DNA of 64,000 bases. It comes from a virus. The position numbers and the translations under genes are program-made. Of the stretch, positions 14,238 to 60,759 are shown one piece after another. The stretch is from positions 30,141-94,140 of the IMG/VR virus record IMGVR_UViG_3300009183_000059; one strand, 5' to 3'. Below the pieces are notes generated by a model. The model had not been told where the DNA came from and ran no database searches. It saw nothing but the letters and a program-made list of their open reading frames with translations. Every line of letters begins with the position of its first letter. Position 1 is the first letter of the stretch.

Positions 14238-15581
14238 ATGGAAATAACTAAGTCTAATTGGACCACTAGCGGAAACAACATTAAGTTGAGCATTCCGTTC
14301 TCAAAGGTCGATCAAAACAAGCGAACAGTCTCTGGCTACGCAACACTAGACAATGTAGACTCACACGGAGATATTGTTTCTTCTGAAGCCTCACTCGGAG
14401 CATTCATGAGATTCCGTGGAAATGTTAGAGAAATGCACCAGCCTATGGCGGTAGGAAAAGTTGTAGCATTTGAACCTAAAAGTTATTACGATCCAAAAGA
14501 AGGTAAAGTTTATAATGGTGTTTACGTGACATCATATGTTTCAAAGGGTGCACAAGATACTTGGGAAAAAGTTCTTGATGGCACTCTTTCTGGTTTCTCA
14601 ATTGGCGGATCAATTAAGAAGTCAGACAATGAGTTTATTGACGGTCAAGAAGAGCCAATAAGAGTAATCAAAGATTACGACCTAGTAGAGTTGTCCCTTG
14701 TAGATAATCCAGCCAATCAGTTAGCAAATATTTTTTCTATTGAAAAAGTTAATGGAGCTATGGTTATGAAGGGAATTGCAACAGGCATTACACCAGAGAA
14801 TATTTTTTGGTGCGGTCAAGATTCAATTGCAATAACATCAGAAAATGATACAGCAACTTGTGATAACTGCTCATGCAATATGGAACAAATTGGATGGGTA
14901 GAATCATCTGACGTTTCCAAAGCAGAATCAATTAAATTAATTGTTGATTCATTTGTACAAAAGAATTCTGAGATTGAAAATATCGCAGAAGAACGTCGTG
15001 AAGCTAACGACGGCGTTGATTTAAATAAAAACACAGCCAATGTAGGAGGTACAGAAGTGGCAGAAAATACAGAACTTCAGTCTGAAGTTGTAGACGCACC
15101 AGCAGCTGAAGCAGTTGTTGAAGCACCAGCAGCTGAGGAAGTAGTTGAGGCAGCAGAAGTTGCCGCAGAAGCTCCAAAGGGCGATGAAGAAGTTGTCGAA
15201 AAGGCAGCAGATATTCAAGAGATCGCCGTAGAAGAGTTAGATTTCGCAAAGAAGCTTGATGAACTCAAGTCGTTCTTCGCCGATAACTTTGCAAAGAATG
15301 CATCTGAGAATGCAACAGGTCTAGAGTCAGTACGTAACAATGTTGAGGAACTAGTTAAGGGTACAGAATCAAAGATCGAAGATCTTGCAAAGAAGTACGA
15401 TGAAATTTCTGGCATCGTAAAGGGCATCACAGATGCTCTTACAGCAACAGAAAAAAGAATTGATTCAGTTGAAACTTCAACTGCTATCAAAAAGTCAGCA
15501 GACCTTGGCGGGTCTAATGATGAACCAATTAAGAAAAGCAAGTGGAACGGCACTTTCCTCGGTGTTCGTGAAATTCTCTAA
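14238..15581 (+). CDS. Prohead maturation protease (HK97-type) fused to a C-terminal scaffold
   Basis: REMHQ, GFSIGG and ELSLVDNPAN protease motifs, then an acidic Ala/Glu linker and a coiled coil. Confidence 0.9.
   Translation: MEITKSNWTTSGNNIKLSIPFSKVDQNKRTVSGYATLDNVDSHGDIVSSEASLGAFMRFRGNVREMHQPMAVGKVVAFEPKSYYDPKEGKVYNGVYVTSYVSKGAQDTWEKVLDGTLSGFSIGGSIKKSDNEFIDGQEEPIRVIKDYDLVELSLVDNPANQLANIFSIEKVNGAMVMKGIATGITPENIFWCGQDSIAITSENDTATCDNCSCNMEQIGWVESSDVSKAESIKLIVDSFVQKNSEIENIAEERREANDGVDLNKNTANVGGTEVAENTELQSEVVDAPAAEAVVEAPAAEEVVEAAEVAAEAPKGDEEVVEKAADIQEIAVEELDFAKKLDELKSFFADNFAKNASENATGLESVRNNVEELVKGTESKIEDLAKKYDEISGIVKGITDALTATEKRIDSVETSTAIKKSADLGGSNDEPIKKSKWNGTFLGVREIL
15057..15581 (+). CDS. 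Nested in-frame scaffold protein (internal start)
   Basis: AGGAGGT at 15044-15050 lies 6 nt before an in-frame GTG at 15057. Confidence 0.65.
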   Translation: MAENTELQSEVVDAPAAEAVVEAPAAEEVVEAAEVAAEAPKGDEEVVEKAADIQEIAVEELDFAKKLDELKSFFADNFAKNASENATGLESVRNNVEELVKGTESKIEDLAKKYDEISGIVKGITDALTATEKRIDSVETSTAIKKSADLGGSNDEPIKKSKWNGTFLGVREIL

Positions 15582-15604
15582 AGACAAGGCAGGTGAAAAA
15601 ACAA

Positions 15605-16690
15605 ATGAGTAATGAACTATTAGAAAAAGCAGTAGTTACAGCGCAGACAGGAGCCAACGCTCTTGGCGTATCAGGCGATGATTCAGCTCGTGGTGGCTTA
15701 CTAAAGCCAGATCAAGCTAATCGTTTCATCGACTATATGTTTGATGCAACAGTTGTAACAAAGTTTGCTAGAACCATTCGTATGCGTTCTGACATTCAAG
15801 AAATCGACAAGATCGGTGTAGGCGAAAGAATCCTTAAGGTTGCTACAGAAGCATCTGATACAGGAGCAGCACAATCAGTTGTGTTCGCTAAGATCTCTCT
15901 TGCAACAAAGAAGCTCCGTTTAGATTGGGAGCTTTCAACTGAATCTTTAGAAGACGGCATTGAGGGCCAAGACCTAGAAGACCACATCGCAAGATTGATG
16001 GCTACTCAGGTTGGTAACGATGTTGAGGATCTTATCCTTAACGGAGTTGGAACAGGCTCAGATACACTTCTAAAAGCATTCAAGGGTGTTACAACCATCG
16101 CAAAGACAGAAGCAAATGTTGTTGATGCAGCAGGTGCAACAATTTCTAAGAGCATCTTTAATGACGCTCTTAAGAAGATGCCACGTCGCTACAAGCAACG
16201 TCGCAACCAACTACGTTTCCTTACAGGAAGCAATTTGGTACAGGACTACTTATACAGCCTAACATCACTTCCAGGATCACCAGAAGATATCGCATCTTCT
16301 ATCGTTCGTGGAGATGTTGCAGCTAATAATGGTGCTCCAGGAGGCGTAATCCCTTACGCATACGGTATCCCAGTACTAGAAGTTCCACTTCTAGATGAGA
16401 ACCAAACTGGAACATACACAAGTCCATCAGGTGCACACGGAGACGTACACCTCACATTCCCAGACAACATTATTGTTGGTGTGAAGCGTGACATTACAGT
16501 ACACCGTGAGTTCAAGCCAAAGAAGGATACAACAGAATATACTCTGTTCCTTCGTGTTGGTACAGCAATCGAAAATCCTGACGCATTCGTTGTCGTCAAG
16601 AACGTAAAGGTTGCAGCAGGATACGATACACGTGACTTCGCAGCCTCAACTGGCGGAAGCTACACAAATCTTCCAGCATCACGTCCATAA
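15605..16690 (+). CDS. Major capsid protein (HK97 fold)
   Basis: GGLL.P.Q..RFIDY, KIGVG.RIL, ED.IEG and D.EDL..NG motifs. Located after the scaffold and followed by a terminator. Confidence 0.92.
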   Translation: MSNELLEKAVVTAQTGANALGVSGDDSARGGLLKPDQANRFIDYMFDATVVTKFARTIRMRSDIQEIDKIGVGERILKVATEASDTGAAQSVVFAKISLATKKLRLDWELSTESLEDGIEGQDLEDHIARLMATQVGNDVEDLILNGVGTGSDTLLKAFKGVTTIAKTEANVVDAAGATISKSIFNDALKKMPRRYKQRRNQLRFLTGSNLVQDYLYSLTSLPGSPEDIASSIVRGDVAANNGAPGGVIPYAYGIPVLEVPLLDENQTGTYTSPSGAHGDVHLTFPDNIIVGVKRDITVHREFKPKKDTTEYTLFLRVGTAIENPDAFVVVKNVKVAAGYDTRDFAASTGGSYTNLPASRP

Positions 16691-16716
16691 TTATAAATTA
16701 GGACAAAATCTGTGAG

Positions 16717-16752
16717 AAGGACCCCTTTCTTTAAAGGGGTCCTTTTCCTTTA
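16717..16752 (+). terminator. Intrinsic terminator after the capsid gene
   Basis: 12-bp stem AAGGACCCCTTT/AAAGGGGTCCTT followed by a T-rich tract. Confidence 0.8.
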
Positions 16753-16797
16753 TAGTGTGTAAAATGCTATAATTAAAACAAAGAAATGGAGAAATAA

Positions 16798-17190
16798 ATG
16801 TCATTAGAGTCAATGAAATTGGCAGAACTAAAAAAGGTAGCAGAAGAATTTGCTGTAGATCTAGAATCTGCAAAGACTAAAGCCGAGGTTCTTGCAGCCC
16901 TAGCGGAAGAGGGGGTAACATCAGACCTAATTAATAATTTGAAAAAGGTGGAAAGAGAAGAGATGCCACCACCACCAGTGTTTGCTAATGCGGAAGAATT
17001 TAATCAAGATCCAGGTTCAGCGCTGGTAAAGATGGAAAGGCTAAATAGAAGCTTTCATACCCGTGGGTATAGTTTTAGCCAAGAGCACCCATTTGTAGCA
17101 ATGAGAATGGAAGATGCACTAGAAATTTTGGATACAGAAGAAGGTTTTAGATTAGCTTCACCTAGAGAAGTTAACGAATACTACTCATAA
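16798..17190 (+). CDS. Head-associated small protein with a Rho-N/HeH-like N-terminus
   Basis: MKLAELKKVAEEF.V......TKAEVL motif. TGCTATAAT upstream at 16764. Confidence 0.55.
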   Translation: MSLESMKLAELKKVAEEFAVDLESAKTKAEVLAALAEEGVTSDLINNLKKVEREEMPPPPVFANAEEFNQDPGSALVKMERLNRSFHTRGYSFSQEHPFVAMRMEDALEILDTEEGFRLASPREVNEYYS

Positions 17191-17201
17191 GGAGATAACA
17201 A

Positions 17202-18131
17202 ATGGCAGAGATACACGCTGGAACTAATGGTCCTATAAACTTTAAGACTTACTATAATGGTATAGCCAAGGATCCAGATGTTGGTCCAACAGTTACTATA
17301 TTTTATGAGGATGCTACAACTGGCACAGTTCTAACTGCCAATAACACTGATGTTGATGCAGGAAGCTATTTTACATATGTTCCTATATCAGCTACAACAA
17401 CCTATAAATATTTTTATTTAAAGATTGACTATACAATTTCTGGAACAGTATTTTCTGATCGAAAGCACTACCTTGTAACACGACCATATGCAACAGTTGC
17501 AGACATTGTAGATTATTCTGGATACGGCGTAGACACAGTAGATACCAACTACAAAACATATGATGAAATTATGTCTGCTGAAAGATATGCTAGATTTAAG
17601 ATTAATGCCTTTACTGGACAAAAATTTGATTATGTTCAAAAGACTATATCAGTACTTGGCGACGGAGTAGATGTACTATTACTACCAGAAAGAATTCAAT
17701 CTATATCTAAGGTATATGAGAACGATGTTTTAGTATACGATTCAACATCTGCAAATAATCAAGTTACATTAAAGGTTACAGATACCAACTATGCAATTGC
17801 AATAGACAAAGGCGCAGGCTTAGAAGTATTTGAGTCATACCCTTACCAAGCAGATAGACCAAATGCTGGATATTTTAATAACGGATCAAAGTATAGTGTT
17901 GAAGGAATGTTTGGATACAAGAATGTTCCAATTGAAATCTATGACTGCACAATAAGACTGGCAAATGACTTTTTCCACCAAGACACTATATGGAAGGAGA
18001 AGTATGTTAAGTCTATGCAGACTGGTGACTGGAACGTTGATATTTCTCCAGCAGCATTTACTGGAACAGGCAACTCTGCAGTAGACAGAATGCTTGAGCC
18101 ATTCGTTGCTAACCGTATGGTGGTTATTTAA
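17202..18131 (+). CDS. Head-tail connector/adaptor protein
   Basis: Position; PYAT..D, AE.YAR..I..FTGQ.F, G.FGY..VP..I and TGN..VD.ML.PF motifs. Confidence 0.7.
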   Translation: MAEIHAGTNGPINFKTYYNGIAKDPDVGPTVTIFYEDATTGTVLTANNTDVDAGSYFTYVPISATTTYKYFYLKIDYTISGTVFSDRKHYLVTRPYATVADIVDYSGYGVDTVDTNYKTYDEIMSAERYARFKINAFTGQKFDYVQKTISVLGDGVDVLLLPERIQSISKVYENDVLVYDSTSANNQVTLKVTDTNYAIAIDKGAGLEVFESYPYQADRPNAGYFNNGSKYSVEGMFGYKNVPIEIYDCTIRLANDFFHQDTIWKEKYVKSMQTGDWNVDISPAAFTGTGNSAVDRMLEPFVANRMVVI

Positions 18132-18562
18132 TGTCAAGAGGCCTTATAGAATCTACCCTAAACATGAAAATGGATGTTTATGAGGTCATTGTTTCACAGG
18201 ATGAAAATACTGGAGCACTTGTAAAGAAATGGGGATATAAGAGCACAGAGCCATGCTTGGCTAGAGGTTATATATCTGAAACTGGAAGAACTGGCGGAAG
18301 CTCAGAAAAGACTGGCGAAAGATACGAAAATACTGAAAGAATAATTATTGAGACAAAGTATAAGACATCAAAGACACAAAGACTTACTAACATTAGAAAC
18401 GACAGAGATGAAGTAATCTGGTTTGAATTAATTAGCAATAACTACGATACCCCAACTATATTTGACGTAATGGGAGTTACCCCAGTCCTTGATCCATTTG
18501 GCCAAATACTATCATTTAATATAACCGCTAAACGCTCAGAGGTACAAAAGCTTGAAGTCTAA
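18131..18562 (+). CDS. Head closure/stopper protein
   Basis: Position and size within the neck module. Confidence 0.55.
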   Translation: MSRGLIESTLNMKMDVYEVIVSQDENTGALVKKWGYKSTEPCLARGYISETGRTGGSSEKTGERYENTERIIIETKYKTSKTQRLTNIRNDRDEVIWFELISNNYDTPTIFDVMGVTPVLDPFGQILSFNITAKRSEVQKLEV

Positions 18563-19343
18563 CATAATCTCACAAATTAAATCTGCTGAGCAAGTTATGT
18601 CAATGGGCGGAAGCAAAGGCATGATCAAAGATAATGGCTCAATAGCTAAGATAGCATCAGCACTATATTATAAAGCAGCGGCATTAGACTATTTAGTTAA
18701 TTCTTCATTAACACAAAAAGCAGTAAAAACAAAGATTTTTAATCAGATAAACAAAGACTTTTCATTTTATACAGATGCACAGGCTAGGAGCTACACATCT
18801 AGGCTACACCACGTATATGAGTGGAGAAGACCTGGAGACCCGTCAGCGAGGCTGTGGAGCCTTGATATGACCCCTTCTACGGGATACAACATGTCTTTGT
18901 CATATTCATTTAAGCAGTCCAGATCAAATGTTCCTAATACAAGATCATTAAAGAAATATGTATTTAAAGAGAAAGCAAGAATTATGGAATATAGAATTCC
19001 AGTAACTATTAGGCCTAAAGCGGCATCAATAAGACTAGCCTTTGAAGGAAGAGATGGGAAGCTGGTTGTCCTTCCAAAAGGCCAAAGCGTTAGAGTTAAA
19101 AATCCAGGCGGAAACAATGTATATAACGGATTTGGAAGAACCTATGAAAGATTCTTTAAGGGCAATATGGTTAAAACTAGCATTGAAGATTCTGGAGTTA
19201 AGGGTGCAGTTACCAGAGCAACAAAAACTTCTACTAAGGTTCCAGCCATGATTTCAAGCAAATTGTCTATTGGAAGAATATCTCCAGAGGCTGTAAGATC
19301 ACTTGCTAAGGCAAGTGCATTGAGGGAGGCTAACAAAATATAA
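18552..19343 (+). CDS. Neck/tail completion protein
   Basis: Basic protein with LHHVYEW...G....RL and F..KA.IME motifs; neck module position. Confidence 0.5.
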   Translation: MKSNIISQIKSAEQVMSMGGSKGMIKDNGSIAKIASALYYKAAALDYLVNSSLTQKAVKTKIFNQINKDFSFYTDAQARSYTSRLHHVYEWRRPGDPSARLWSLDMTPSTGYNMSLSYSFKQSRSNVPNTRSLKKYVFKEKARIMEYRIPVTIRPKAASIRLAFEGRDGKLVVLPKGQSVRVKNPGGNNVYNGFGRTYERFFKGNMVKTSIEDSGVKGAVTRATKTSTKVPAMISSKLSIGRISPEAVRSLAKASALREANKI

Positions 19344-19888
19344 TGGCAAACTATTCATTAAATGCTGCAGGAGCCGTAAGAGACTTCTTGTGGAGTAAGC
19401 TAAGCACAACAGATTCAAATGTTAAATCTGGTCAAAAGATGTTTGAACCATCAGACTATCAGATTGATCTATTGAGCGGAACCGAATTCACAATGATACC
19501 TATCATTCCATCACAGCAGGATGCCTTGTTAGACGGAGCCCTAGCAGATAGAAATCATATTATTTATGATTATGTAGCAGATGGATATGAGGACAATTGG
19601 ATGATCTGCAGAGATTCAATGATGTTCACAATATACTCCAAGTCATATGCTGAGATTGCAGAGGTTCAAAACTTAATGCTAGATCTATTCAGAAGAATGG
19701 ATGATACAGCGGAAGACATAAACAACTTTATAGGCTCAAATTCACCATTTATCTTCTTTTCGGTCTCACTGATCGACCTTCTTTCTCCAGAACCAGAACG
19801 TGAAAAGGTTGGATGGCAGGCAGGACAGGTCGTAATCAGATATAAGTATGGAAGACAGATATCAGCAACTACAGGTAGATTCTCGTAG
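19343..19888 (+). CDS. Tail terminator-like protein
   Basis: Acidic protein immediately before the tail tube gene. Confidence 0.55.
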   Translation: MANYSLNAAGAVRDFLWSKLSTTDSNVKSGQKMFEPSDYQIDLLSGTEFTMIPIIPSQQDALLDGALADRNHIIYDYVADGYEDNWMICRDSMMFTIYSKSYAEIAEVQNLMLDLFRRMDDTAEDINNFIGSNSPFIFFSVSLIDLLSPEPEREKVGWQAGQVVIRYKYGRQISATTGRFS

Positions 19889-19891
19889 GCC

Positions 19892-19920
19892 TTGCTTTTT
19901 AATATGTTAGGCTGTATTAT
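19892..19920 (+). promoter_or_regulatory. Sigma70-type promoter for the tail tube gene
   Basis: TTGCTT-17 nt-TATTAT. Confidence 0.55.
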
Positions 19921-20021
19921 TTAACTATCGAGGATTTGTCAGCCTAGCCAGCTGTTCGTTTTAATTGGTAAGATTTTAAGCAAGAACTATATCCACAAAA
20001 AAGATGGAGGTGGAAACAAAA

Positions 20022-20699
20022 ATGGCAAATGTAAATAATATTATCGTTGGTGCCGCTAACGTTTGGGTTTCAAAGAAAGACTCAACACAGGTAGCAGCAT
20101 GGCCAACATACGCATTACCAACATTCACAGCTAACACAACAGCAGCGACAGCAATGGACGCAGCTACAGGCGCAACAGGTTGGAGAAACGTTGGTTTTAC
20201 ATCAGAAGGAATTGAAGTACAATACTCACCAGATTACGGTGACATTCAGGTAGATCAGCTACTTGATACAGCTAAGCTTTTCAAGCAAGCAATGACAGTT
20301 TCAGTAAACACAACATTAGCAGAAGCAACTCTAGAGAACCTATTGTTCTCATTCGCACAAGCGAATGATACAAAGGATGCTACAACAGGTGCAGGAGCAG
20401 ATACAGCTTACGTAAAAGGAACTGGCGGAGAGTCACTAGGACTTGAGGCAGGAGCACTTGGAGCAGAACCAGTAGAAAGAGCACTTGTGTTCATTGGTAA
20501 CGCACCACGTTCGACAGCAGGTGTTAAGAGAGAGCGTCTATATCATGCACGTCGTGTATTGAACGTAGAAGCTTCTTCACACTCATACCGTCGTAATGAA
20601 GCAACAGTATTCCCAGTATCATTTAGATTGTTACCAGACCCAGCATTTTCAGGCGCTGAGTACGGAATGATCGTTGATCGTCAAATTGCAGCTTCTTAA
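20022..20699 (+). CDS. Major tail (tube) protein
   Basis: NIIVGA, W..VGFT.EG, VDQL.D, T.LAEATLENL and FPV.FR.LPD motifs. GGAGG SD. Confidence 0.88.
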   Translation: MANVNNIIVGAANVWVSKKDSTQVAAWPTYALPTFTANTTAATAMDAATGATGWRNVGFTSEGIEVQYSPDYGDIQVDQLLDTAKLFKQAMTVSVNTTLAEATLENLLFSFAQANDTKDATTGAGADTAYVKGTGGESLGLEAGALGAEPVERALVFIGNAPRSTAGVKRERLYHARRVLNVEASSHSYRRNEATVFPVSFRLLPDPAFSGAEYGMIVDRQIAAS

Positions 20700-20724
20700 T
20701 AACTAAATTTATTTAGTCTCAATT

Positions 20725-20760
20725 AAATGGCCCCTATTCGTAGGGGCCATTTCTTGTCTT
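20725..20760 (+). terminator. Intrinsic terminator after the tail tube gene
   Basis: AAATGGCCCCTA-TTCG-TAGGGGCCATTT followed by a T-rich tract. Confidence 0.8.
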
Positions 20761-20815
20761 AATACCTAGTGTCTGGTAAAATTGTACAGAGACTAACAGA
20801 AATAGGAGGAGTACT

Positions 20816-21468: not shown

Positions 21469-21471
21469 CAA

Positions 21472-26850: not shown

Positions 26851-26852
26851 CA

Positions 26853-27284: not shown

Positions 27285-30257
27285 TTGATAAGCATTCCAG
27301 CATTAACACAGATCCTGTCAGAAAATACATCAGTAAAGGCTCTGCCTAAAGTCATATTTGAATACAATATGAACGAGATGGCAGGCACCGTTGAGGTAAC
27401 AACTTCCTCAACTCAATCAGATATTATAAAAGAATTGTTCCCAGCAAAGTCTATAGTTCAGTCATTTAGACCATCAAAGGCAGGAGTAAGATACGCAATT
27501 CTAGGTACAGGCTTGACCCTAGGCACATATAAAACAAAGGTCATCCCTACAACAAGAACATATATGGTTGATAAAAATATACCTTACACCTATTTCTTGG
27601 CTCAAGGAAGCGCAGTTGCCGTTGTATCATATAAAAATAAATCTGGAAGTGCTGCACAAAATATATTAACAAATAAAATATCTGTTCGTGTAGAAACTGG
27701 CCATGGCTCAAATACAATATCTATAGGCTCACTATATACTGGATCAGTTCCTTCATCTGGAATTGTAGACATTTGGTATAACGGAACTGCTTGGACAACT
27801 ACAGAGCCAGCAACTTATGCAACTCCACAATCAATATCAACATTAACAGTAACCGTATCAGGAGGGACATTTAATTCAATCATTGAGGTATCTCCAAAAT
27901 ATGTTTTAGATGTCACAAACAGAGTTATATCTGTTAATATTGATAAAGATGATTCAATGAATGATGACAAACTTCCAGTTGGAATGCTTACAGCAAATGC
28001 GGCATCACTTAATCTGTCAACCATAATTCAAGACGATATAGTTCAGTTTCTTCGTGGTGACACCATTGTCTCAAATAAAGTGATGATAACTAATAACATA
28101 AAATGCATAGTCAAGTTTATTATTGAAGATACACATTCTGTTCAGCAGGGAGTATTTTATATAAATGACTACAGCTCTGATGAGTATGGAAACTATTCAA
28201 TTAAAGCACTAGATGTTGCAAAGTTTCTTCAAGAGATACCGTGTCCCGAAATAATGCTAAAGGATTCATCCTTCCAAGCAATTATGTGGAGAGTTCTTGA
28301 TGCAGTTGGATTTGTGGACTATGATTTTTCAAAATGCACAGCAGACGTTTTAACTTGTAGATATTGGTGGGGCGATTCAAACAAATCAGTATGGCAGGTA
28401 ATACAAGAAATTTGTAGAGAAAGCCAAACAGTAGCTTATGTAAACGAATCTGGAACATTGGTGTTTATAGATAGAGACACATTCTACAGCTCAATACCAA
28501 ACTACACATGGACTTTTAGATCCACCCCACTTGCAAATATGAAGCCAGATATTATTCAGTTGTCATCTTCATCTAGACCAACAACTAATGCTGTAAGAAT
28601 TAAATATAATGTTCCAACAACAAGTTCCCAAGAAGCATCTTCTCAACCACTGTGGACCGAACAATCACCATCAACTTTATTTGCGGCTCCTTATAAAGGA
28701 ATATCTTCAGGTTACATCTTATATCCAGAAAGAGGAGTGTTCTCAGATGTTATCCCAACGAGATTTAACTCCTACATTCTTGTAGGCGGAGAAATTATAG
28801 AATATGATGCTATAAGATTTCAATCTCCAGATGGAGAAGTTGATGTATCTTCTGCTGGGCAGTATCTTGAATTAAGAGCAAAGCATAATAATAACTTGAG
28901 TCCCGTAGGAAAACTAAAGATAAAAGCTAGAAATGTATTTGGAACCCCAAATACAACAGCAAATCCCGTTCAGTCACCATCTTTAATTCTAGATGGATAC
29001 AGTGCAAGACAAATTAAACTAGGAACAACAACAAATAATTCTGTTGATATATCAAAAGTTTGCGCTATGAATCAATCTGGAAATAACATGTCTGCCTTAT
29101 CTATAAGTGCATCTGGCTCTAAAGATGATTTATATTTAGTTAGTAAGACATTTCCATATACATCAGACTCTGAATTTTTCCAAATAGGTACAGCAATTGG
29201 ATTTGAATTAGCCTCAGCATCCCAGATAGGAATTCAACAGACTTCTGGAATGACATTCTTCTGGAATAATTCTACTAATAGTGGATACCTACTTCTACTA
29301 TACTCAACAAGATCTGCACAGAATGTTAAGCAGAAATCGGAAGCTGCTTTGTATAAAGTTACTAATGGGTCAGCCAAACTTCTTGAGAGCGTAACCTCAA
29401 ATATATTTGAAGAGTCTTTTTATGGATTAGATATCTTAGTGCACAAAGAATCAACTAAGAATACTATTTTTATAAGTGTTAATGGAAGTACAATCGAATA
29501 TGAAGACGCAACAAGCCCAATCGCTGCAACATCAACCATAGGTCTTGTGGCTGGAGGTCAATCAACTGCATACTTTGATTATCTATACTCATTAAAGAGA
29601 GACGCATTTGTACTAGATATATCTGCATCAAGAACTAGCGGTAGGCTGTTATCCAATTCATTTTTCCAGAAGTTTACATATGATTCTGCCACAGCATCTA
29701 ATTTAAAATATGATGAATTTGGAGATGTGATTAGAGAGCTATATAAGGCTGAGGCTCAATATGAATCTGCATATGCTATTGCAGCCCAACCATCAGACGG
29801 TCTTGCCCAGGTGGTAGGACAAAGGCTTGGATACTATAAGGGTGAGTTTTATGTATTTAATACTTCATCTTCTACAATTGCCCTAGCTGGCGGAGACGGC
29901 AAAGACTTATTTGTGTATGGTGTATCTGTAGCAAATGCTGGTCAAAATTTTTACAACTCAGATGACAAAATTACGGATGTAAAGCAAATAACCTCATTTG
30001 ACTCTCAGTGGATACAAAGCAAGGAAGCGGCCAAAAGCCTATCAGACTTCCTTACAAAGCAATGGTCTAAGTCAACAGTAGACATTGATATGGAAGTTTT
30101 TGGAAATCCTGTACTTCAGGTGGGGGATATTGTTACAATTAATTATCCAGAAAGAGGTTTTGACGGATCTGGCAAGTTTGTTATCAGATCTATATCACAT
30201 TCTATGGATATTGGAATAAGCACCAGGCTAAAACTACGTTCGATTTATTCGGCTTAG
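27285..30257 (+). CDS. Tail tip/baseplate hub (Tal-like) protein
   Basis: Y.NE.G.L.F and C-terminal FGNP.LQVGDIVTI.Y motifs. Confidence 0.7.
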   Translation: MISIPALTQILSENTSVKALPKVIFEYNMNEMAGTVEVTTSSTQSDIIKELFPAKSIVQSFRPSKAGVRYAILGTGLTLGTYKTKVIPTTRTYMVDKNIPYTYFLAQGSAVAVVSYKNKSGSAAQNILTNKISVRVETGHGSNTISIGSLYTGSVPSSGIVDIWYNGTAWTTTEPATYATPQSISTLTVTVSGGTFNSIIEVSPKYVLDVTNRVISVNIDKDDSMNDDKLPVGMLTANAASLNLSTIIQDDIVQFLRGDTIVSNKVMITNNIKCIVKFIIEDTHSVQQGVFYINDYSSDEYGNYSIKALDVAKFLQEIPCPEIMLKDSSFQAIMWRVLDAVGFVDYDFSKCTADVLTCRYWWGDSNKSVWQVIQEICRESQTVAYVNESGTLVFIDRDTFYSSIPNYTWTFRSTPLANMKPDIIQLSSSSRPTTNAVRIKYNVPTTSSQEASSQPLWTEQSPSTLFAAPYKGISSGYILYPERGVFSDVIPTRFNSYILVGGEIIEYDAIRFQSPDGEVDVSSAGQYLELRAKHNNNLSPVGKLKIKARNVFGTPNTTANPVQSPSLILDGYSARQIKLGTTTNNSVDISKVCAMNQSGNNMSALSISASGSKDDLYLVSKTFPYTSDSEFFQIGTAIGFELASASQIGIQQTSGMTFFWNNSTNSGYLLLLYSTRSAQNVKQKSEAALYKVTNGSAKLLESVTSNIFEESFYGLDILVHKESTKNTIFISVNGSTIEYEDATSPIAATSTIGLVAGGQSTAYFDYLYSLKRDAFVLDISASRTSGRLLSNSFFQKFTYDSATASNLKYDEFGDVIRELYKAEAQYESAYAIAAQPSDGLAQVVGQRLGYYKGEFYVFNTSSSTIALAGGDGKDLFVYGVSVANAGQNFYNSDDKITDVKQITSFDSQWIQSKEAAKSLSDFLTKQWSKSTVDIDMEVFGNPVLQVGDIVTINYPERGFDGSGKFVIRSISHSMDIGISTRLKLRSIYSA

Positions 30258-37315: not shown

Positions 37316-37344
37316 TTGACAGCCTTAGCGCATATTGATATAAT
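37316..37344 (+). promoter_or_regulatory. Consensus sigma70 promoter, leaderless
   Basis: TTGACA-17 nt-TATAAT, with the ATG 6 nt downstream. Confidence 0.85.
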
Positions 37345-45959: not shown

Positions 45960-45973
45960 AGTAATGGAGAATA

Positions 45974-53807: not shown

Positions 53808-53965
53808 AGCTCTACCAAAGCAAAGATTATTTATTTAGAAGATATGTACTTCAAAAGAAAACGATAAAGGAGATAGCAGAAGAATGTCAAGTATCGCACA
53901 TGACAATCCAGAGATATCTGGAAGACTTTGGTCTGATAAAGAATCAGAGGAAGTGGAAAAGGTAG
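53804..53965 (+). CDS. Small HTH protein (53 aa; not in ORF track)
   Basis: KTIKEIAEECQVSHMTIQRYLEDFGL; GTGA-coupled to the RuvC-like gene. Confidence 0.7.
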   Translation: MKLYQSKDYLFRRYVLQKKTIKEIAEECQVSHMTIQRYLEDFGLIKNQRKWKR

Positions 53966-54714: not shown

Positions 54715-54724
54715 TTAATTAGCT

Positions 54725-54753
54725 TTGACATTTTAGTTGACCAAGAGTATACT
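54725..54753 (+). promoter_or_regulatory. Sigma70 promoter for the terminase operon
   Basis: TTGACA-17 nt-TATACT. Confidence 0.75.
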
Positions 54754-54774
54754 TTATATAGAACAGGAGATATC

Positions 54775-55344
54775 ATGTCTGAAATAGAATTAGCAGAACG
54801 TTTTGACCGTATGAACAAAGTAGTAGAACAAATGCTTATGGGCAATAGTGCTACTCAAATTTCAAAGACTCTATCTCTTCCACGTAAAGACGTGCTAGAA
54901 TTAATTGAAGAATGGAAAACTGTTGTTCGTGATGATTCAAGTGCAAGAGACCGTGCAAAAGAAGCGGTAGCAGGTGCAGATCAACACTACGCAATGCTCA
55001 TTAAAGAGGCCTGGAAGACTGTAGACGATGCAGATCAGGCAGGACAACTAAATGTTAAGGCTACCATATTAAAGCTTATCTCAGACATTGAGCAGAAAAG
55101 AATTGCTATGCTTCAGCAGCTTGGACTACTTGATAATGCAGAGCTTGCCAGCCATCTTGCAGAAACAGAAAGAAAGCAAGACATTCTTATTGGAATATTA
55201 AAAGATATATCAGCAGAGTACCCGCAGGTAAGAAATGAAATTATGCGTAGGCTTTCACAGATATCTAATCAAGTTGAAGAAGTAATCATTGCAGAGGCAA
55301 ATAATGTAACTAGCCTCAGAGATGTGAGCGAAGATGTCGTTTAA
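54775..55344 (+). CDS. Probable terminase small subunit
   Basis: N-terminal HTH plus helices, directly upstream of TerL. Confidence 0.6.
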   Translation: MSEIELAERFDRMNKVVEQMLMGNSATQISKTLSLPRKDVLELIEEWKTVVRDDSSARDRAKEAVAGADQHYAMLIKEAWKTVDDADQAGQLNVKATILKLISDIEQKRIAMLQQLGLLDNAELASHLAETERKQDILIGILKDISAEYPQVRNEIMRRLSQISNQVEEVIIAEANNVTSLRDVSEDVV

Positions 55345-57112
55345 TTTTGCAGACATAATTGATATACTTGACGGTGAAGAGTTTGAAGAACGCCCAGTAG
55401 AGTTAGATGAATTTGTTGTCAGCCACGAGTATCTTGGACTACCACCATTATCCGAGTATCAATACATGCTTATCAGAGCAAGCTCACAAATATATAAGAG
55501 GGCAACTTTAAATAAATTATATGGTGAAGAAGCTGGCGAAAAGCGCTGGAAAGAAACAGTCAATGAAGTAGTAGCACAACTGGGTAAGGGATCAGGTAAA
55601 GACTACTGCTCTACTATTGCCGTTGCTTATATTGTTTATCTTTTATTATGTTTAAAAGACCCAGCAAAATATTTTGGAAAGCCTCCTGGAGACTCAATTG
55701 ATCTTATTAATATTGCTGTTAACGCACAGCAGGCTAAGAATGTTTTTTTTAAAGGGCTTAAGACAAGAGTTGACAAGTCCCCTTGGTTTGCAGGAAAGTA
55801 TATAGCAAAGGCGGACGTAATTGAGTTTGATAAAGGCATTAGCTGTCACTCAGGTCACTCCGAAAGAGAAGCATTTGAGGGATACAACGCACTAGTAGTT
55901 ATCCTGGACGAGATTTCTGGATTCAGTGTTGACAATACAACAGGTCACGAGCAAGCTAAAACGGCTGGAGCAATATATGATATGTATAGGGCATCAGTAG
56001 ATTCACGTTTTCCAGACTTTGGTAAAGTAATACTTCTTTCATTCCCACGCTATAAGAATGATTATATACAGCAAAGATATGAAGCAGTCGTTGCTCAAAA
56101 AGAAGTAAAGGTATTGAGTCATAAATTTAAGATGGACGAAGATCTTCAAGATGGTGTAGATGGAAATGAATTTACTGTTGAATGGGAAGAAGATCAAATA
56201 ATATCCTATAAGATTCCAAAGACTTTTGCATTGCGTAGACCAACATGGCAGATTAACCCAACTAGAACTATTGATGATTTTAAGGTAGCTTTCTATACAA
56301 ATCCAACAGATGCATTGTCACGCTTTGCATGTATGCCACCAGAAGCAGTAGACGCTTTCTTTAAGTCAAGAGAAAAGATTGAGGCGGCATTTGTCTTAAA
56401 TAATGGTGTAGACAACTCCACTGGAAGATTTGAAGAAGCCCTAAAACCGTTGGAAGATATGGAATATTTTGTGCACGTTGACTTAGCTCAAAAGCATGAC
56501 CATTGTGCAGTATCTATGTCTCACGTAAGTGAGTGGGTAAAGATTAGATCATTTAATGATTATGAGCAGGTAGCTCCTAAAGTTATTGTTGATGCAGTAA
56601 GATGGTGGACTCCTACTTCAGATAAGTCTGTTGATTTTACTGAGGTCAAAGATTATATTATTTCTCTTAAGTCTAGAGGTTTTAATATTAAGGCTGTAAC
56701 ATTTGACCGATGGAACTCACACGATATGATGCAACAAATTAAAAATTATAATATTCACACAGAGATATTATCCGTAGCAAAGAAGCACTACGAGGATATG
56801 GCTCTTGGAATTATGGAAGAAAGAATAACTGGTCCAGATATTAAGCTTTTAATAGACGAGTTATTGCAGTTAAGAATTGTGAGAGACAAGGTAGATCACC
56901 CTAGAAAGGGCTCTAAGGACCTTGCAGACGCCGTGTGCGGGTCTATATATAATGCCATATCAAGATCACAAAAAGGCGATAGAGAAATTAATATTCACAC
57001 TTGGGCTGGAAGCAAAGAAGATAATGTAAATAGCAAGGTAACTAAGGATGGAGTACCTAAGAGGATGCCAGCAGAACTCTTAGATGCAATATCAGGAATG
57101 AGTATACTATGA
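55334..57112 (+). CDS. Terminase large subunit
   Basis: GKGSGKD Walker A, VILDE Walker B, and nuclease motifs HVDLA..HD, FDRW and DHP..GSKD..DA. Confidence 0.92.
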   Translation: MSFNFADIIDILDGEEFEERPVELDEFVVSHEYLGLPPLSEYQYMLIRASSQIYKRATLNKLYGEEAGEKRWKETVNEVVAQLGKGSGKDYCSTIAVAYIVYLLLCLKDPAKYFGKPPGDSIDLINIAVNAQQAKNVFFKGLKTRVDKSPWFAGKYIAKADVIEFDKGISCHSGHSEREAFEGYNALVVILDEISGFSVDNTTGHEQAKTAGAIYDMYRASVDSRFPDFGKVILLSFPRYKNDYIQQRYEAVVAQKEVKVLSHKFKMDEDLQDGVDGNEFTVEWEEDQIISYKIPKTFALRRPTWQINPTRTIDDFKVAFYTNPTDALSRFACMPPEAVDAFFKSREKIEAAFVLNNGVDNSTGRFEEALKPLEDMEYFVHVDLAQKHDHCAVSMSHVSEWVKIRSFNDYEQVAPKVIVDAVRWWTPTSDKSVDFTEVKDYIISLKSRGFNIKAVTFDRWNSHDMMQQIKNYNIHTEILSVAKKHYEDMALGIMEERITGPDIKLLIDELLQLRIVRDKVDHPRKGSKDLADAVCGSIYNAISRSQKGDREINIHTWAGSKEDNVNSKVTKDGVPKRMPAELLDAISGMSIL

Positions 57113-57363
57113 GTAAATACGTAAGCACTAAATTCAATGGCATGATGTGTGCCTGTGTTGGTAAGCATGTGCCATTGCCAGTAACACTTGAAACATATGA
57201 AGGAAATCATTTATGTCCAACAACATATAATAATGTTATTGAATATAAAAAGATCTGGGAAGTGCTTGGCAACGAGCCACCTGGAAGTATTAGAAAGCAT
57301 TTTAGTGAGTTCGTACAGGATCTTGTACGATCAAGTGTAGACAAATCCAAGCAACTGTTGTAG
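57109..57363 (+). CDS. Hypothetical protein
   Basis: ATGA-coupled ORF with C.C...H...CP. Confidence 0.6.
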   Translation: MSKYVSTKFNGMMCACVGKHVPLPVTLETYEGNHLCPTTYNNVIEYKKIWEVLGNEPPGSIRKHFSEFVQDLVRSSVDKSKQLL

Positions 57364-57366
57364 AAT
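57338..57366 (+). promoter_or_regulatory. Promoter for tRNA(CAT)
   Basis: TAGACA-17 nt-TAGAAT, 8 nt before the tRNA. Confidence 0.6.
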
Positions 57367-57374
57367 TGTATAAG

Positions 57375-57448
57375 GCGGCAGTAGCTTAGTTGGTTAAAGC
57401 CCCGAACTCATAATTCGGTAATCGTAGGTTCAAGTCCTACCTGCCGCA
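57375..57448 (+). tRNA. tRNA with CAT anticodon (elongator Met or Ile2)
   Basis: GCGGCAG/CTGCCGC acceptor, CCGAA-CTCATAA-TTCGG anticodon arm, TTCAAGT T-loop. The G1-C72 pair argues against an initiator. Confidence 0.9.
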
Positions 57449-57465
57449 CAAAGAAAGGAGTAATC

Positions 57466-57567
57466 ATGGCTAACAAAGAACAAAAAGGCAACGCAAATAA
57501 AAAGAAAGAGCCTAAGCTCTCTCTAAAAGAAAAACGTGCAAAAAAGCAAGAGAAGAAGAACAAGTAG
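57466..57567 (+). CDS. 33-aa Lys-rich peptide (not in ORF track)
   Basis: AAGGAG SD; MANKEQKGNANKKKEPKLSLKEKRAKKQEKKNK. Confidence 0.65.
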   Translation: MANKEQKGNANKKKEPKLSLKEKRAKKQEKKNK

Positions 57568-57579
57568 TATAATTGTATT

Positions 57580-57685
57580 ACCATAGTTTGTGGATGAGCC
57601 ACAGCTCTGGTCCTGGCCAACGTGCTTGTAGGTACCTTGGGATGGAAGACTAGTTACTGCTGCCCAGCCTTCGGGCTGGGCAGTA
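57580..57685 (+). ncRNA. Candidate structured non-coding RNA
   Basis: GC-rich intergenic island after TATAAT (57568-57573), with a 5' hairpin (57581-57610) and a 10-bp cUUCGg hairpin (57660-57683). Confidence 0.4.
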
Positions 57686-57700
57686 CTATAAGGAAGGCAC

Positions 57701-58030
57701 ATGGAAGATTTCGAGATGGACCAAGATGGCTTTGATCAAATGATGGAGCACTATGTAGAAATAGGCGCTGTAACTGTCAACGGTATAGATGTGTCTGGTA
57801 ATTTTATTTATGTTATTACAGACAAGGCAAAGGAATTAGCTCCAGATTTATGGGAGATGCATCATGAGATGATTGATGAAGCTCTGGTAGGATTATTTGA
57901 GCAGGGATTAATAGAAGTAGAGTACGATGAAGATCTAAATGCCAATATGAAAATATCAGATGCGGCTAGAGAAGTTATGTATCAACTAGGATACGTAGAT
58001 ATGGAAAATTTGGATGACCCAGACAACTAG
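57701..58030 (+). CDS. Acidic hypothetical protein
   Basis: ORF with AAGGAAGG SD. Confidence 0.65.
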   Translation: MEDFEMDQDGFDQMMEHYVEIGAVTVNGIDVSGNFIYVITDKAKELAPDLWEMHHEMIDEALVGLFEQGLIEVEYDEDLNANMKISDAAREVMYQLGYVDMENLDDPDN

Positions 58031-58352
58031 AGATAGATATTATGCGGATCTAGAAAGACTATTACCAACAAAAAGAAAAGATAAGACTGGCCATAAAAGG
58101 CGATTCATTCAAGAATATAAAAATAATAAGCCGTGTGCAGATTGCCAAGTCGTACTACCTTGGTATATAATGGAATATGACCATGTTAGGGGAGAAAAAA
58201 TAGCTAACCTAACTAAAATGTATGCAACCCATACAATGGAAGAGATTGTAGAAGAAATTGCTAAGTGTGACATTGTTTGTTCTAATTGTCACAAGCATCG
58301 TACTTGGGTGTCCATGATTGGACAGGATAGGGCAGGAAATGAAAAAGATTGA
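58014..58352 (+). CDS. HNH-type endonuclease
   Basis: CADC...EYDHV...EIAKCDIVCSNCH..RT. Confidence 0.8.
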   Translation: MTQTTRDRYYADLERLLPTKRKDKTGHKRRFIQEYKNNKPCADCQVVLPWYIMEYDHVRGEKIANLTKMYATHTMEEIVEEIAKCDIVCSNCHKHRTWVSMIGQDRAGNEKD

Positions 58353-58566
58353 GCTGACAGAAAACCAAGCAAAACAATTAGAGTCGTTTGTAGAAGACCA
58401 TATGAATGGTTGCTATATGATGCTGCATGACGAAGAAGATGTAAGAGAAGGATTTGAATCATATGGCCCATATTGCGGATGTCAAACTTGTGACACACGA
58501 GAGCAATTGATGGCAACATTTGATTGGTTAAGATCTCAAAACATTGTTGACGTATACGTCAACTAG
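58339..58566 (+). CDS. Hypothetical protein (YCGCxxC)
   Basis: ORF with PYCGCQTCDTRE. Confidence 0.6.
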   Translation: MKKIELTENQAKQLESFVEDHMNGCYMMLHDEEDVREGFESYGPYCGCQTCDTREQLMATFDWLRSQNIVDVYVN

Positions 58567-58571
58567 TCTAT

Positions 58572-58644
58572 GCCTCTGTAGCTCAGGGGATAGAGCGACG
58601 GACTTCTAATCCGCAGGCCGCAGGTTCGATTCCTGCCAGGGGCA
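58572..58644 (+). tRNA. tRNA-Arg(TCT)
   Basis: GCCTCTG/CAGGGGC acceptor, CTTCTAA anticodon loop, GGTTCGATTCC T-arm. Confidence 0.92.
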
Positions 58645-58647
58645 CTG

Positions 58648-58676
58648 TTGACAGTGCATAAAAAAAAGAGTATAAT
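58648..58676 (+). promoter_or_regulatory. Consensus sigma70 promoter
   Basis: TTGACA-17 nt-TATAAT. Confidence 0.85.
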
Positions 58677-58698
58677 TAAAATATAACAAGGAGTTGAC

Positions 58699-59046
58699 AT
58701 GCTAGGAGATAGTAGATTTACAAAAGCCCAAGGCCCGTGCTGGGAAGGCTATGAAATGATTGGCTATAAAACTCAAAATGGCAAGAAGGTTCCTAATTGT
58801 GTCAAGGTTGATGCAAAGAAGTCTAATGATACTGGGTTTGAAATTGTAGAAGTTCATCCAAGATGTGAAGGGCCAGCTTTAGTTGAAACAAATGGTACAT
58901 CTGTTCTCTGCTATGGTTCTATGGAAGAGGCAAGATCGGCATTAGAAGATATGGGACGTGAGGCGGAACCAGCGTCAGTAAGACCTAACGATATGAGTAA
59001 GATTTGGAAAGGATCAGGCTTTGAAACTCCTAGATGCTGCCCCTGA
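58699..59046 (+). CDS. Hypothetical protein with CWxGY...GKKVPNCV motif
   Basis: AAGGAG SD; PCWEGYEMIGYKTQNGKKVPNCV; C-terminal SKIWKGSGF. Confidence 0.7.
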   Translation: MLGDSRFTKAQGPCWEGYEMIGYKTQNGKKVPNCVKVDAKKSNDTGFEIVEVHPRCEGPALVETNGTSVLCYGSMEEARSALEDMGREAEPASVRPNDMSKIWKGSGFETPRCCP

Positions 59047-59248
59047 AATAGAAGAGATTGAACTTAAAGTAACAGATAGGTGTGATGCATGCCAAGCGCA
59101 AGCATTTGTTTATCTAAAAGGAGTTACTGGTGAGTTGTATTTTTGTGGCCACCACTATGCAAAAAACGAAGAAAAGATAAAGTCCTGGGCATTTACAATA
59201 ATTGATGCTCGTGATACAATTAATAGCAAGCCAGATTCAAACAACTAA
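59021..59248 (+). CDS. Small zinc-binding protein (DRCDxC...FCGHH)
   Basis: The motif resembles a small protein family seen in actinobacteria and their phages. Confidence 0.6.
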   Translation: MKLLDAAPEIEEIELKVTDRCDACQAQAFVYLKGVTGELYFCGHHYAKNEEKIKSWAFTIIDARDTINSKPDSNN

Positions 59249-59263
59249 GAGAACGGATATGCG

Positions 59264-59734
59264 GTGCAAACATTTTTACCATACAGCGATTTTGACGAAT
59301 GCGCTTCAGTTTTAGATTCACGTAGATTAAACAAACAGTTATTAGAGGGTAGACAAATCCTTAACTCTTTGGCTGGAATCTCAAAGGGTTGGCGTAATCA
59401 CCCAGCAGTTAAAATGTGGGCGGGGTCAGAATTAGTTCTATATAATTACCTAAATGCTATTGCTAAAGAATGCTACAATCGTGGAATTAAGTTTAAGAAT
59501 AACTTGGATGCAATTGATCAAACAATTGACACTCATTTTCAAGCGGTAGAGTTTAATAATCGTCCATTCTGGATGAAAGATCAAACACTTTTACGAAGAG
59601 TAAATGCAACACACCAAGCTAATCTATATAGAAAGGATAGCCACGAATACGCACTATTTCAATCCGCATATGATGATGTAAACAATGATCCATGCTGTGA
59701 TACCTGTAGCTATTTTTGGCCAACTCACGAATAA
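59264..59734 (+). CDS. Pyrimidine-dimer DNA glycosylase-like protein (MSMEG_6728 family)
   Basis: MQTFLPY..F..A..LD..RL.KQ..E..QIL, GWRNHPAVKMW, H..NL.RKD and Y.WP motifs. Confidence 0.85.
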   Translation: MQTFLPYSDFDECASVLDSRRLNKQLLEGRQILNSLAGISKGWRNHPAVKMWAGSELVLYNYLNAIAKECYNRGIKFKNNLDAIDQTIDTHFQAVEFNNRPFWMKDQTLLRRVNATHQANLYRKDSHEYALFQSAYDDVNNDPCCDTCSYFWPTHE

Positions 59735-59935
59735 ATGCCAAAGTATCAATATAAATGTGAATGTGACGTAAGCGTAGCAGTTGAAGATAATATACACGAG
59801 TTTGAAAGATCAATCATGGAAGATGAGCCAGACTATCCTTGCGGATATTGTGGTAAAGATATGGTTCGTGTTTATAGTTCTTTTGGAATTAAATTCAACG
59901 GTCCTGGCTTCTATAAGACAGATAATTCTAAGTAA
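59735..59935 (+). CDS. FmdB-family zinc-ribbon protein
   Basis: MP.Y.Y.C...C..CG..M.RVYS...I.F.G.GFY.TD. Confidence 0.85.
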   Translation: MPKYQYKCECDVSVAVEDNIHEFERSIMEDEPDYPCGYCGKDMVRVYSSFGIKFNGPGFYKTDNSK

Positions 59936-59942
59936 TTATCAA

Positions 59943-60015
59943 TGGGGATTAGCTCAGTCGGCAGAGCGGGAAACTGTTAATTTCTAGGTCATAGGTTCGA
60001 GTCCTATATCCCCAG
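59943..60015 (+). tRNA. tRNA-Asn(GTT)
   Basis: TGGGGAT/ATCCCCA acceptor and CTGTTAA anticodon loop. Confidence 0.9.
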
Positions 60016-60019
60016 CAAT

Positions 60020-60093
60020 GCGAGTGTTACATAATGGTAGTGTCTCTGCCTTCCAAGCAGATAGTGCCAGTTCGATTCTGGTCACTCGCTCCA
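60020..60093 (+). tRNA. tRNA-Gly(TCC), CCA encoded
   Basis: GCGAGTG/CACTCGC acceptor, TCTGC-CTTCCAA-GCAGA anticodon arm, TCCA end. Confidence 0.9.
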
Positions 60094-60099
60094 ATATAG

Positions 60100-60172
60100 G
60101 CCCTTATAGCCCAGCGGTAGAGGCACACGACTTAAAATCGTGACAGCGTTGGTTCGAATACAACTAGGGGTA
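60100..60172 (+). tRNA. tRNA-Leu(TAA), atypical (short variable loop)
   Basis: CACGA-CTTAAAA-TCGTG anticodon arm, 5-nt variable loop, and a G-A mismatch closing the T-loop. Confidence 0.75.
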
Positions 60173-60193
60173 CTATTCTGGTATAATCGTTGT

Positions 60194-60580
60194 ATGAGCA
60201 TGTACACATATTATACAAAGATTGACAAGGTAGTCGACGGTGATACAGTAGACGTATTTATTGATCTAGGATTCAGCGTATGGCATAAGGAAAGAATTAG
60301 ACTTTCTGGAATCGATACAGCAGAAAAAAACACCCCACTTGGGAAGGCATTAAAGGCTTATATGATTTCTTTGCTAGAAGGAAAGACAGTTAAGCTTGAA
60401 GTAACTAAGCCAGATAAGTACGGAAGATACCTAGGAAAGATTTATCTTAACTCGGAAGAAAGCATTAACGACCAATTAATTAAAGTTGGTCTCGCTAAAG
60501 GCTACGGCGGAGATTCAAAAGTTGGTCTCTGGACAGAAGAAGAATTAGCTAAAACTGAAATAACCGCAACACTAAAGTAA
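60194..60580 (+). CDS. Thermonuclease (SNase-like)
   Basis: KVVDGDT, RIRLSGIDT.E and DKYGRYLG motifs. Leaderless ATG 6 nt after TGGTATAAT. Confidence 0.9.
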   Translation: MSMYTYYTKIDKVVDGDTVDVFIDLGFSVWHKERIRLSGIDTAEKNTPLGKALKAYMISLLEGKTVKLEVTKPDKYGRYLGKIYLNSEESINDQLIKVGLAKGYGGDSKVGLWTEEELAKTEITATLK

Positions 60581-60588
60581 GGGACAAT

Positions 60589-60759
60589 ATGTCAGAAGAT
60601 ACATACATTGACAAGCTAGAGCCGCATGTTGATAAAGAGCCAGATCTAAAAAAGAAGTCCGTTTGGGAAGGTGTTTTTAATCCAGCAAGCCCAAACAGCA
60701 CAGAGGAAATCTTAGAAGAAATTCTTATAGAGACCCTTGACGAAAAGCTATCAGACTGA
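60589..60759 (+). CDS. 56-aa acidic protein with KKSVWEGVF motif (not in ORF track)
   Basis: AAGGGA SD; MSEDTYIDKLEPHVDKEPDLKKKSVWEGVFNP... Confidence 0.6.
   Translation: MSEDTYIDKLEPHVDKEPDLKKKSVWEGVFNPASPNSTEEILEEILIETLDEKLSD

Follow-up and report, generated by a model that had tools for sequence, protein, structure and literature searches.

Why would the tail of a phage scaffold protein carry the same short peptide as small proteins encoded about 40 kb away from the head genes? The question is raised by a stretch of 64,000 nucleotides, positions 30,141 to 94,140 of the IMG/VR record IMGVR_UViG_3300009183_000059 (the window). This is the right-hand part of a viral contig of 94,140 bp whose G+C content is 38%, from an uncultured phage of ca. 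100 kb. The peptide lies in the tail of a prohead protease-scaffold fusion protein and in two accessory proteins of 115 and 56 amino acids (aa). A first reading of the window (the original prediction) had proposed that these accessory proteins borrow the coat-binding peptide of the scaffold and are thereby packaged into the head. Here, we found that the peptide is conserved and portable, independent of its position and of the protein family that carries it. From the comparison of sequences, we incline to the view that it may be a docking peptide copied from the scaffold tail, which would recruit accessory proteins into proheads.

Protease-scaffold fusion and its tail motif

The protease-scaffold gene (14238..15581, plus strand, 447 aa) was assigned by Pfam, by PHROG, and by its identity to the proteases of the Streptomyces BE-cluster phages (Stanwilliamsviridae, ca. 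130 kb), the nearest cultured relatives (41 to 44% identical). The protein matched Pfam Peptidase_S78 (PF04586; E = 1.3e-6, 29.1 bits, cut-off 21) and Peptidase_S78_2 (XkdF; PF14550; E = 5.6e-6, 26.8 bits, cut-off 24) and, over its full length, PHROG 9427, "head maturation protease" (E = 3e-138). Its C-terminal half is acidic or coiled, and the open reading frame (ORF) map places the gene immediately 5' of the major capsid gene, without a separate scaffold gene. The order of the protease-scaffold and capsid genes is identical in related contigs and in Yaboi, a cultured Streptomyces phage whose protease (41% identical) ends in ..SKWGGHFLSVSDISR and carries a tail of the W-x-G-x-F-L type.

Translation recovered all three peptides that the original prediction had pointed out, namely, KKSKWNGTF in the protease-scaffold (15531-15557), MSKIWKGSGF in the 115-aa protein (58993-59022), and KKKSVWEGVF in the 56-aa protein (60649-60678). 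BLASTP found no further similarity among the three proteins, in agreement with the claim that they are otherwise unrelated. The scaffold motif, KKSKWNGTFLG (residues 432 to 442; 15531..15563, plus strand), does lie in the tail, but FLG is not the end of the protein as had been claimed, since five more residues (VREIL) precede the stop codon.

To place this tail in its family, we drew on several sets of sequences. Tails could be extracted from 49 of 80 IMG/VR loci located via the capsid protein, and all 49 (16 distinct sequences) contained W-x-G-x-F-L within the common pattern ..TA[IV][KR]KS.DL.GS....W.G.FL.. When 1.84 billion cluster representatives were searched in full with HMMER, 2,923 members of the protease-scaffold family came up. 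Among the best 150 of these, which were inspected, W-x-G-x-F stood within the last 16 residues in 99, W-x-G-x-I in 12, and F-x-G-x-F in 6, while the rest were mostly incomplete sequences or had the motif slightly further from the end. A second IMG/VR scan, made with distant family members in the form of a profile of the 12 W-x-G-x-I proteins, retrieved W-x-G-x-F tails only (79 of 79 loci); one W-x-G-x-I representative (P0143) had no relative in IMG/VR and no close one among cultured phages. Closer relatives of the phage are numerous in IMG/VR as uncultured contigs of ca. 100 kb, and we fetched seven related records, whole or almost so, which range from 49 to 107 kb and include three that have terminal repeats; all seven have the motif on the scaffold tail. 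The tail logo reads K-K-S-phi-W-[GN]-G-x-F-L, preceded by a Gly/Ser/Asp/Pro-rich stretch. Conservation across these sets indicates that the tail is under strong selection and defines the protease-scaffold family.

A second tail element, AIKKSADLGGS (residues 416 to 426; 15483..15515, plus strand), is also conserved in the scaffold family. The words of this element recur as DSAIKKSAD within the linkers of certain long homologues of the 115-aa protein, which suggests that recombination copied parts of the scaffold tail. The corresponding pattern [IVLM][KRQ]KS.[DE] was not enriched outside scaffolds in the proteomes. As a guess, this element might be a cutting site of the protease.

Two other features of the protease-scaffold gene were observed. 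At the point where the acidic half begins, AGGAGG is followed after 7 bases by an in-frame GTG (15044..15059, plus strand; 15057 - 14238 = 819), from which a separate scaffold protein of ca. 174 aa with the same tail could be made, judging by the reading frame. A parallel is the C/Nu3 pair of phage lambda. After the protease domain there is a Cys-rich insert (14800-14900, residues ca. 190 to 220) of the form ..FWCGQDS...CDNCSC.., with ..FWCPKDE...CPVCDK.. in Yaboi, which is probably a zinc ribbon. A sequence-based search found no solved structural relative of the protease.

Accessory proteins of the window

The 115-aa protein (58699..59046, plus strand) consists of a CW-x-GY...VPNC hairpin module, a small beta/alpha module, and an unstructured tail that bears the motif (58993..59022, plus strand; W103, G105, and F108), according to an alignment (A2) and an AlphaFold2 model. 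A2 has 24 members; the homologues number 23 and go down to 53% identity. No more than 15 of its columns are invariant, among them those of W103, G105, and F108 in an otherwise variable tail. The claim that this protein ends with the same motif was right as to the three residues, but the window protein has one extra residue in the spacing (W-x-G-x-x-F). Its distant homologues end in tails such as ..KFWEGSF.. and ..FWRGSFA*, with the canonical W-x-G-x-F spacing at the very C-terminus. Complete members of the family in IMG/VR ended with the motif in all cases (8/8), and none of ca. 70 other proteins with the CW-x-GY hairpin alone did so. The AlphaFold2 model, of low confidence overall (mean predicted local distance difference test [pLDDT] of 60.6), contains the hairpin and the small beta/alpha unit, while beyond a helix at residues 75 to 85 no regular structure was predicted save a 3-residue turn, with a pLDDT of ca. 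51 to 55 from residue 91 onward. Matches to PHROG were confined to the hairpin.

The 56-aa protein (60589..60759, plus strand) is made of 20 residues, the motif, and an acidic tail, and its homologues form three clusters with 75 to 89% identity. It carries the motif as had been predicted, with the correction that this is central (residues 21 to 30; 60649..60678, plus strand) and followed by an acidic tail of 26 residues. Within the alignment of the family (A1), K22, K23, S24, V25, W26, G28, and F30 are invariant, and two homologues of 72 aa have an extra N-terminal copy, KS[LV]FEGVF. Neither accessory protein had a Pfam match, and an ESM Atlas search returned unnamed viral clusters only. Altogether, W, G, and F proved invariant both in the scaffold tails of the related IMG/VR contigs and in the two accessory families, which bears out the original prediction on this point.

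Several side observations concern the modules of the 115-aa family. Many homologues have an insert of the DESGESHD-KKKKKKK type, either between modules or right before the motif (A2; G001, 82584-82955; G002, 5703-6290), and the long ones have an added N-terminal hairpin-helix module that resembles their own central module. The CW-x-GY...G-K-x-VPNC hairpin itself (58735-58803, residues 13 to 35) was confirmed in 496 IMG/VR stretches and occurs in 280 phage records, many of them cyanophages and haloviruses, within proteins of 49 to 1,254 aa; no Pfam family covers it. Other groups of CW-x-GY proteins (loci L021-L086) have the recurrent tails ..DADLLP.., ..YYGDLLK*, ..YYKDII*, and ..GYGN.S..

Motif-bearing proteins across related genomes

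We extended the analysis to eight proteomes, those of the window phage and its seven relatives. Each of the related genomes encodes one to three motif-bearing accessory proteins, which belong to at least four families over the eight genomes. Where the window phage has the 56-aa gene, one relative encodes a protein of 135 aa with a PHROG 2859-like domain, NKNIWAGVF, and an acidic tail, while the slot of another is empty. Proteins of 212 and 240 aa share the layout of the 135-aa protein (PHROG 2859-like domain, motif, acidic tail), and a 111-aa protein of a relative starts with MDNNINKSVWSGVFFP, which contains the motif, the remainder being acidic tail only. From these layouts, the 56-aa protein appears as the shortest of a class made of motif plus acidic tail.

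Other carriers differ in architecture. Two modular proteins of 350 and 388 aa have four kinds of small modules in series with the motif placed after them, and such modular proteins with a "GYGN tail" from IMG/VR had at least one copy in 13 of 13 cases, mostly as W-x-G-x-F-x-P. A Cys-rich family of 115 to 121 aa has the C-terminal motif ..GKFWGGSFLK, and an acidic, zinc-ribbon-like family of 232 to 248 aa has ..KSIWGGSFAP.. at the same end. Single-linkage clustering joined 11 tagged proteins via common modules, while three other families stayed apart. The positions of the motif thus include C-termini, module borders, and a single N-terminus, which is what a linear motif should show, and the K-S-phi flank is common to the scaffold and accessory copies.

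The enrichment was measured over the eight proteomes minus the scaffolds, using strict W-x-G-x-F and 500 shuffles. Within the last 14 residues of proteins, the motif occurred 8 times against 0.47 expected (ca. 17-fold), and anywhere in proteins it occurred 26 times against 8.9 expected, values that none of the 500 shuffles reached, although the genomes are related and hence do not amount to eight independent events.

Fusions of the same modules to head proteins

Modules of the tagged proteins were also found joined to head proteins in other phages. The tagged family of 115 to 121 aa is homologous (E = 4e-18 and 7e-20) to residues 762 to 845 of an 855-aa protein of Actinomycetia phage DSL-LC01, which has a Peptidase_S78 domain at residues 244 to 350 and whose gene lies just 5' of the likely capsid gene. 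In halovirus HSTV-1, the CW-x-GY hairpin lies within the annotated head maturation protease, right after the protease domain. The hairpin is also present in proteins with weak, sub-threshold matches to portal or XkdF-type protease families, as well as in a Dps/ferritin fusion. Modules fused to head proteins would need no address, while free-standing genes 40 kb off carry the scaffold tail, so that both arrangements together make a coherent pattern.

Gene context and major capsid protein

Nearly all genes of the window are on the plus strand, in the order tail-fibre-like genes, portal (12623-14191), protease-scaffold, major capsid protein, tail genes, a DnaE-type polymerase with other replication genes, and finally small genes with transfer RNA (tRNA) genes. 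The protease/capsid operon is preceded by a promoter-like site, TTGCGT-N17-TATTAT (14200-14228). The major capsid protein (15593..16690, plus strand, 365 aa) belongs to the HK97 fold family (Pfam Phage_capsid, E = 6.8e-10), and its alignment (A3) has 29 rows with a mean column identity of 74%; by sequence, no solved relative was found. A complex prediction of the capsid protein (A3) with the 56-aa protein (A1), run without controls, gave a score of 0.01, a value that weighs on binding in neither direction.

The accessory genes, about 40 kb from the head module, are part of the phage genome itself, with synteny conserved in relatives. Both are flanked by genes for a DUF7455 protein, a pyrimidine dimer glycosylase, and a staphylococcal-nuclease homologue, a synteny kept in two relatives, and five tRNA genes (Met, Arg, Asn, Gly, and Leu) are scattered among the small genes of this region (57375-60173). 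Perfect TTGACA-17-TATAAT sites, as consensus matches, occur only twice in the window, at 37316-37344, after the tail-fibre block, and at 58648-58676 (plus strand), ahead of the 115-aa gene, where the site is followed by an AAGGAG ribosome-binding site.

A proposed docking peptide shared by scaffold and accessory proteins

How could one peptide serve such different proteins? The pattern would be explained if K-S-phi-W-x-G-x-F were a short linear docking peptide. The C-terminal motif of the protease-scaffold would most likely keep scaffold and protease attached to the inside of the HK97-fold shell during its assembly, and accessory proteins that bear a copy on unstructured tails or linkers would be drawn to that site too and become enclosed in the prohead. 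The receptor would then be the capsid protein, and the accessory proteins would be present inside proheads and virions. That the enclosed proteins survive scaffold removal, leave with the DNA, and enter the next host is the least certain part of the scheme and is put forward as pure inference. Of the original proposal, the part borne out is the conserved portable motif on the scaffold tail and on unrelated accessory proteins, with the tie by fusion of two modules to head proteases as independent evidence, while coat binding, packaging, and delivery are its putative parts. The proposal has to be amended in that the accessory proteins are not isolated oddities but members of a mosaic family of modules.

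In a wider form, which we put forward with hesitation as a possibility that may well prove wrong, actinobacterial phages of a very large family, which spans lake phages and cultured members of the Streptomyces BE cluster, would share the scaffold tail K-S-phi-W-x-G-x-F as one universal capsid address code. In the aquatic lineages, modules that are fused to the protease or portal in other phages would have turned into free-standing, rapidly shuffled, and tagged genes, whose small products are shipped in the head as a changeable set.

Several results weigh against recruitment by a copied docking peptide. The regular expression that came with the original prediction had 3 matches in the proteome against 0.047 expected from shuffled proteomes, but it had been fitted after the matches were seen, and for that reason an unbiased test was run instead, in which the final 20 scaffold residues were compared with all other window proteins and the best 9-mer BLOSUM62 match was set against those of 500 shuffled proteomes. 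The 56-aa protein came first (score 35) with P = 0.05, which is marginal within a single genome, and the 115-aa protein was absent from the top matches. Such single-window statistics are suggestive only, and the case therefore rests on conservation in relatives. The variable positions of the motif did not covary between scaffold and accessory proteins of the same genome, so that only the invariant W, G, and F link the two. A perfect sigma-70-like promoter of its own stands ahead of the 115-aa gene, which lies amid early-looking genes and tRNAs, a setting that does not speak for late expression at the time of prohead assembly. In the DSL-LC01 group, the CW-x-GY proteins end in DADLLP and the scaffold in ..SQMSKMLRLLT; a general rule that cargo copies the tail of its own scaffold was rejected for CW-x-GY modules on account of this mismatch. 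Finally, in Yaboi, the one cultured relative scanned, the motif was found on the protease only and on no accessory protein.

The Yaboi genome (MH727564.1) also has an unannotated 61-aa ORF on the minus strand of the terminal repeat (5095-5280 and 123913-124098), overlapping gene 9/270 and ending in ..AVWQGVFLPRCYGSL. Its tail resembles the W-x-G-x-F..PRCCP of the 115-aa protein, and it is probably a spurious frame in GC-richer DNA.

Alternative explanations

Tagged proteins might reach the prohead in another role, either as competitors or regulators of scaffold binding, acting on its release, on timing, or on size control, or as substrates degraded by the prohead protease. The closest proven case is of this kind, as the C-terminus of the phage 80alpha scaffold binds the capsid protein and CpmB of SaPI1, a competitor and not a cargo, copies that peptide (a "helix-and-hook" with an RIIK motif) and binds in the same cleft (PMC5644958). 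The 56-aa protein, little else than motif and acidic tail, has a scaffold-like composition, and the AIKKSAD words in long homologues of the 115-aa protein offer a possible processing site. However, the AIKKSAD-type pattern lacks enrichment outside scaffolds, and the tagged proteins have diverse folded modules that other phages build into large multidomain proteins associated with the head, which fits passengers better than regulators. We regard this explanation as unlikely.

We give a comparably low probability to a second alternative, in which the motif binds some other common partner, such as the protease domain, the portal, or a host chaperone or protease, and serves as an interaction or turnover signal unrelated to enclosure. 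The choice of the capsid protein as receptor is, after all, ours. The invariance of the motif from soil Streptomyces phages to low-GC lake phages would be accounted for by any conserved partner, and the strong promoter of the 115-aa gene suggests expression uncoupled from that of the head genes. Nevertheless, the C-terminus of the P22 scaffold is a capsid-binding element, and that of the HK97 gp4 protease is reported to be one. More broadly, the C-termini of scaffolds and proteases are classical elements of this type, as in 80alpha (PMC5644958), and in other phages head proteases contain modules of the tagged proteins in covalent fusion.

Chance or compositional likeness of a three-residue core, with no common function, is very improbable: the core is short, the within-genome test was marginal for one protein and unremarkable for the other, and background matches exist in folded proteins (in tail fibres, and as ..HWDGDFF.. 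in a conserved protein of 240 aa), but W, G, and F are invariant within the variable tails of several families, and the motif recurs in eight genomes with C-terminal enrichment and a common K-S-phi flank. A relationship to WXG100 proteins, substrates of type VII secretion that form helical hairpins of ca. 100 aa with a central W-x-G, was considered on account of the W-x-G in an actinobacterial setting and rejected, given that a scaffold protein and tails without structure are the places where the motif occurs and that there was no WXG100 Pfam match.

Comparison with known systems

The recruitment that we propose has partial parallels. As in 80alpha and CpmB, a second, otherwise unrelated small protein shares the C-terminal motif of the scaffold, here by sequence. 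CpmB is the product of a satellite and redirects the size of the capsid, while the copies described here are encoded by the phage itself and belong to several families; there, the peptide is an amphipathic helix with an RIIK hook, and here, it is a Gly-centred aromatic motif in unstructured sequence.

In phage T4, a capsid targeting sequence on IPI-III and Alt loads these proteins into the prohead, to be delivered together with the DNA (Mullaney and Black 1996; review, PMC3012670), and DarB of P1 has, at its N-terminus, a signal for targeting to the capsid (PMC9024508). These systems are alike in that one short peptide is found on diverse, fast-changing proteins encoded apart from the head genes, here at least four families, with a relation to the scaffold. 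In contrast, their signals are N-terminal, while ours are C-terminal or internal in all cases but one. The T4 signal is removed by the prohead protease gp21 at a defined site, for which the sole candidate here is AIKKSAD-like, unenriched outside scaffolds. Also unlike T4 and P1, the tag copies the tail of a protease-scaffold fusion in an HK97-type siphovirus lineage.

For HK97 itself, Duda, Oh, and Hendrix are said to have found in 2013 that the C-terminus of the gp4 protease is an encapsidation signal. Cargo loading by engineered fusions to the scaffold has been described for P22 (PMC9962691). In both, the C-terminal end of a protease or scaffold suffices to carry a passenger into an HK97-fold shell, but the passenger is the protease itself or part of a man-made fusion, whereas in these phages natural, free-standing genes appear to do so. 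Encapsulins likewise dock their cargo on the inner face of an HK97-fold shell by a short terminal peptide; they have no portal, scaffold, protease, or DNA, and their peptide consensus is another, while the window phage has portal, protease-scaffold, tail, and replication genes. A likeness in modular make-up exists with the polyvalent proteins of phages, for which packaging and injection have been predicted (Iyer et al. 2017, PMC5512222). The likeness lies in shuffled small modules (the CW-x-GY hairpin, the PHROG 2859-like domain, and a Cys-rich module) that are strung together or, in other phages, fused to portal- or protease-type head proteins. The difference is that in these phages the modules are distributed over separate small genes that stand outside the head module, each with the scaffold-tail peptide. 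Our literature search found no paper with the W-x-G-x-F motif and none on natural scaffold-tail tags in this phage group.

If recruitment by the copied scaffold tail is true, natural tagging of capsid cargo would no longer be confined to T4-like myoviruses and P1 but would take in a large group of siphoviruses of the HK97 type whose protease and scaffold are fused (2,923 family matches), and the origin of such tags, by copying of the docking peptide of the scaffold, would become visible. The ten-residue peptide could be tested in cultured Streptomyces phages with the same scaffold tail and would possibly be a tool for loading proteins into these capsids. It would also provide a simple sequence rule to spot packaged proteins in metagenomic phages, and such proteins would be likely counter-defence or take-over factors.

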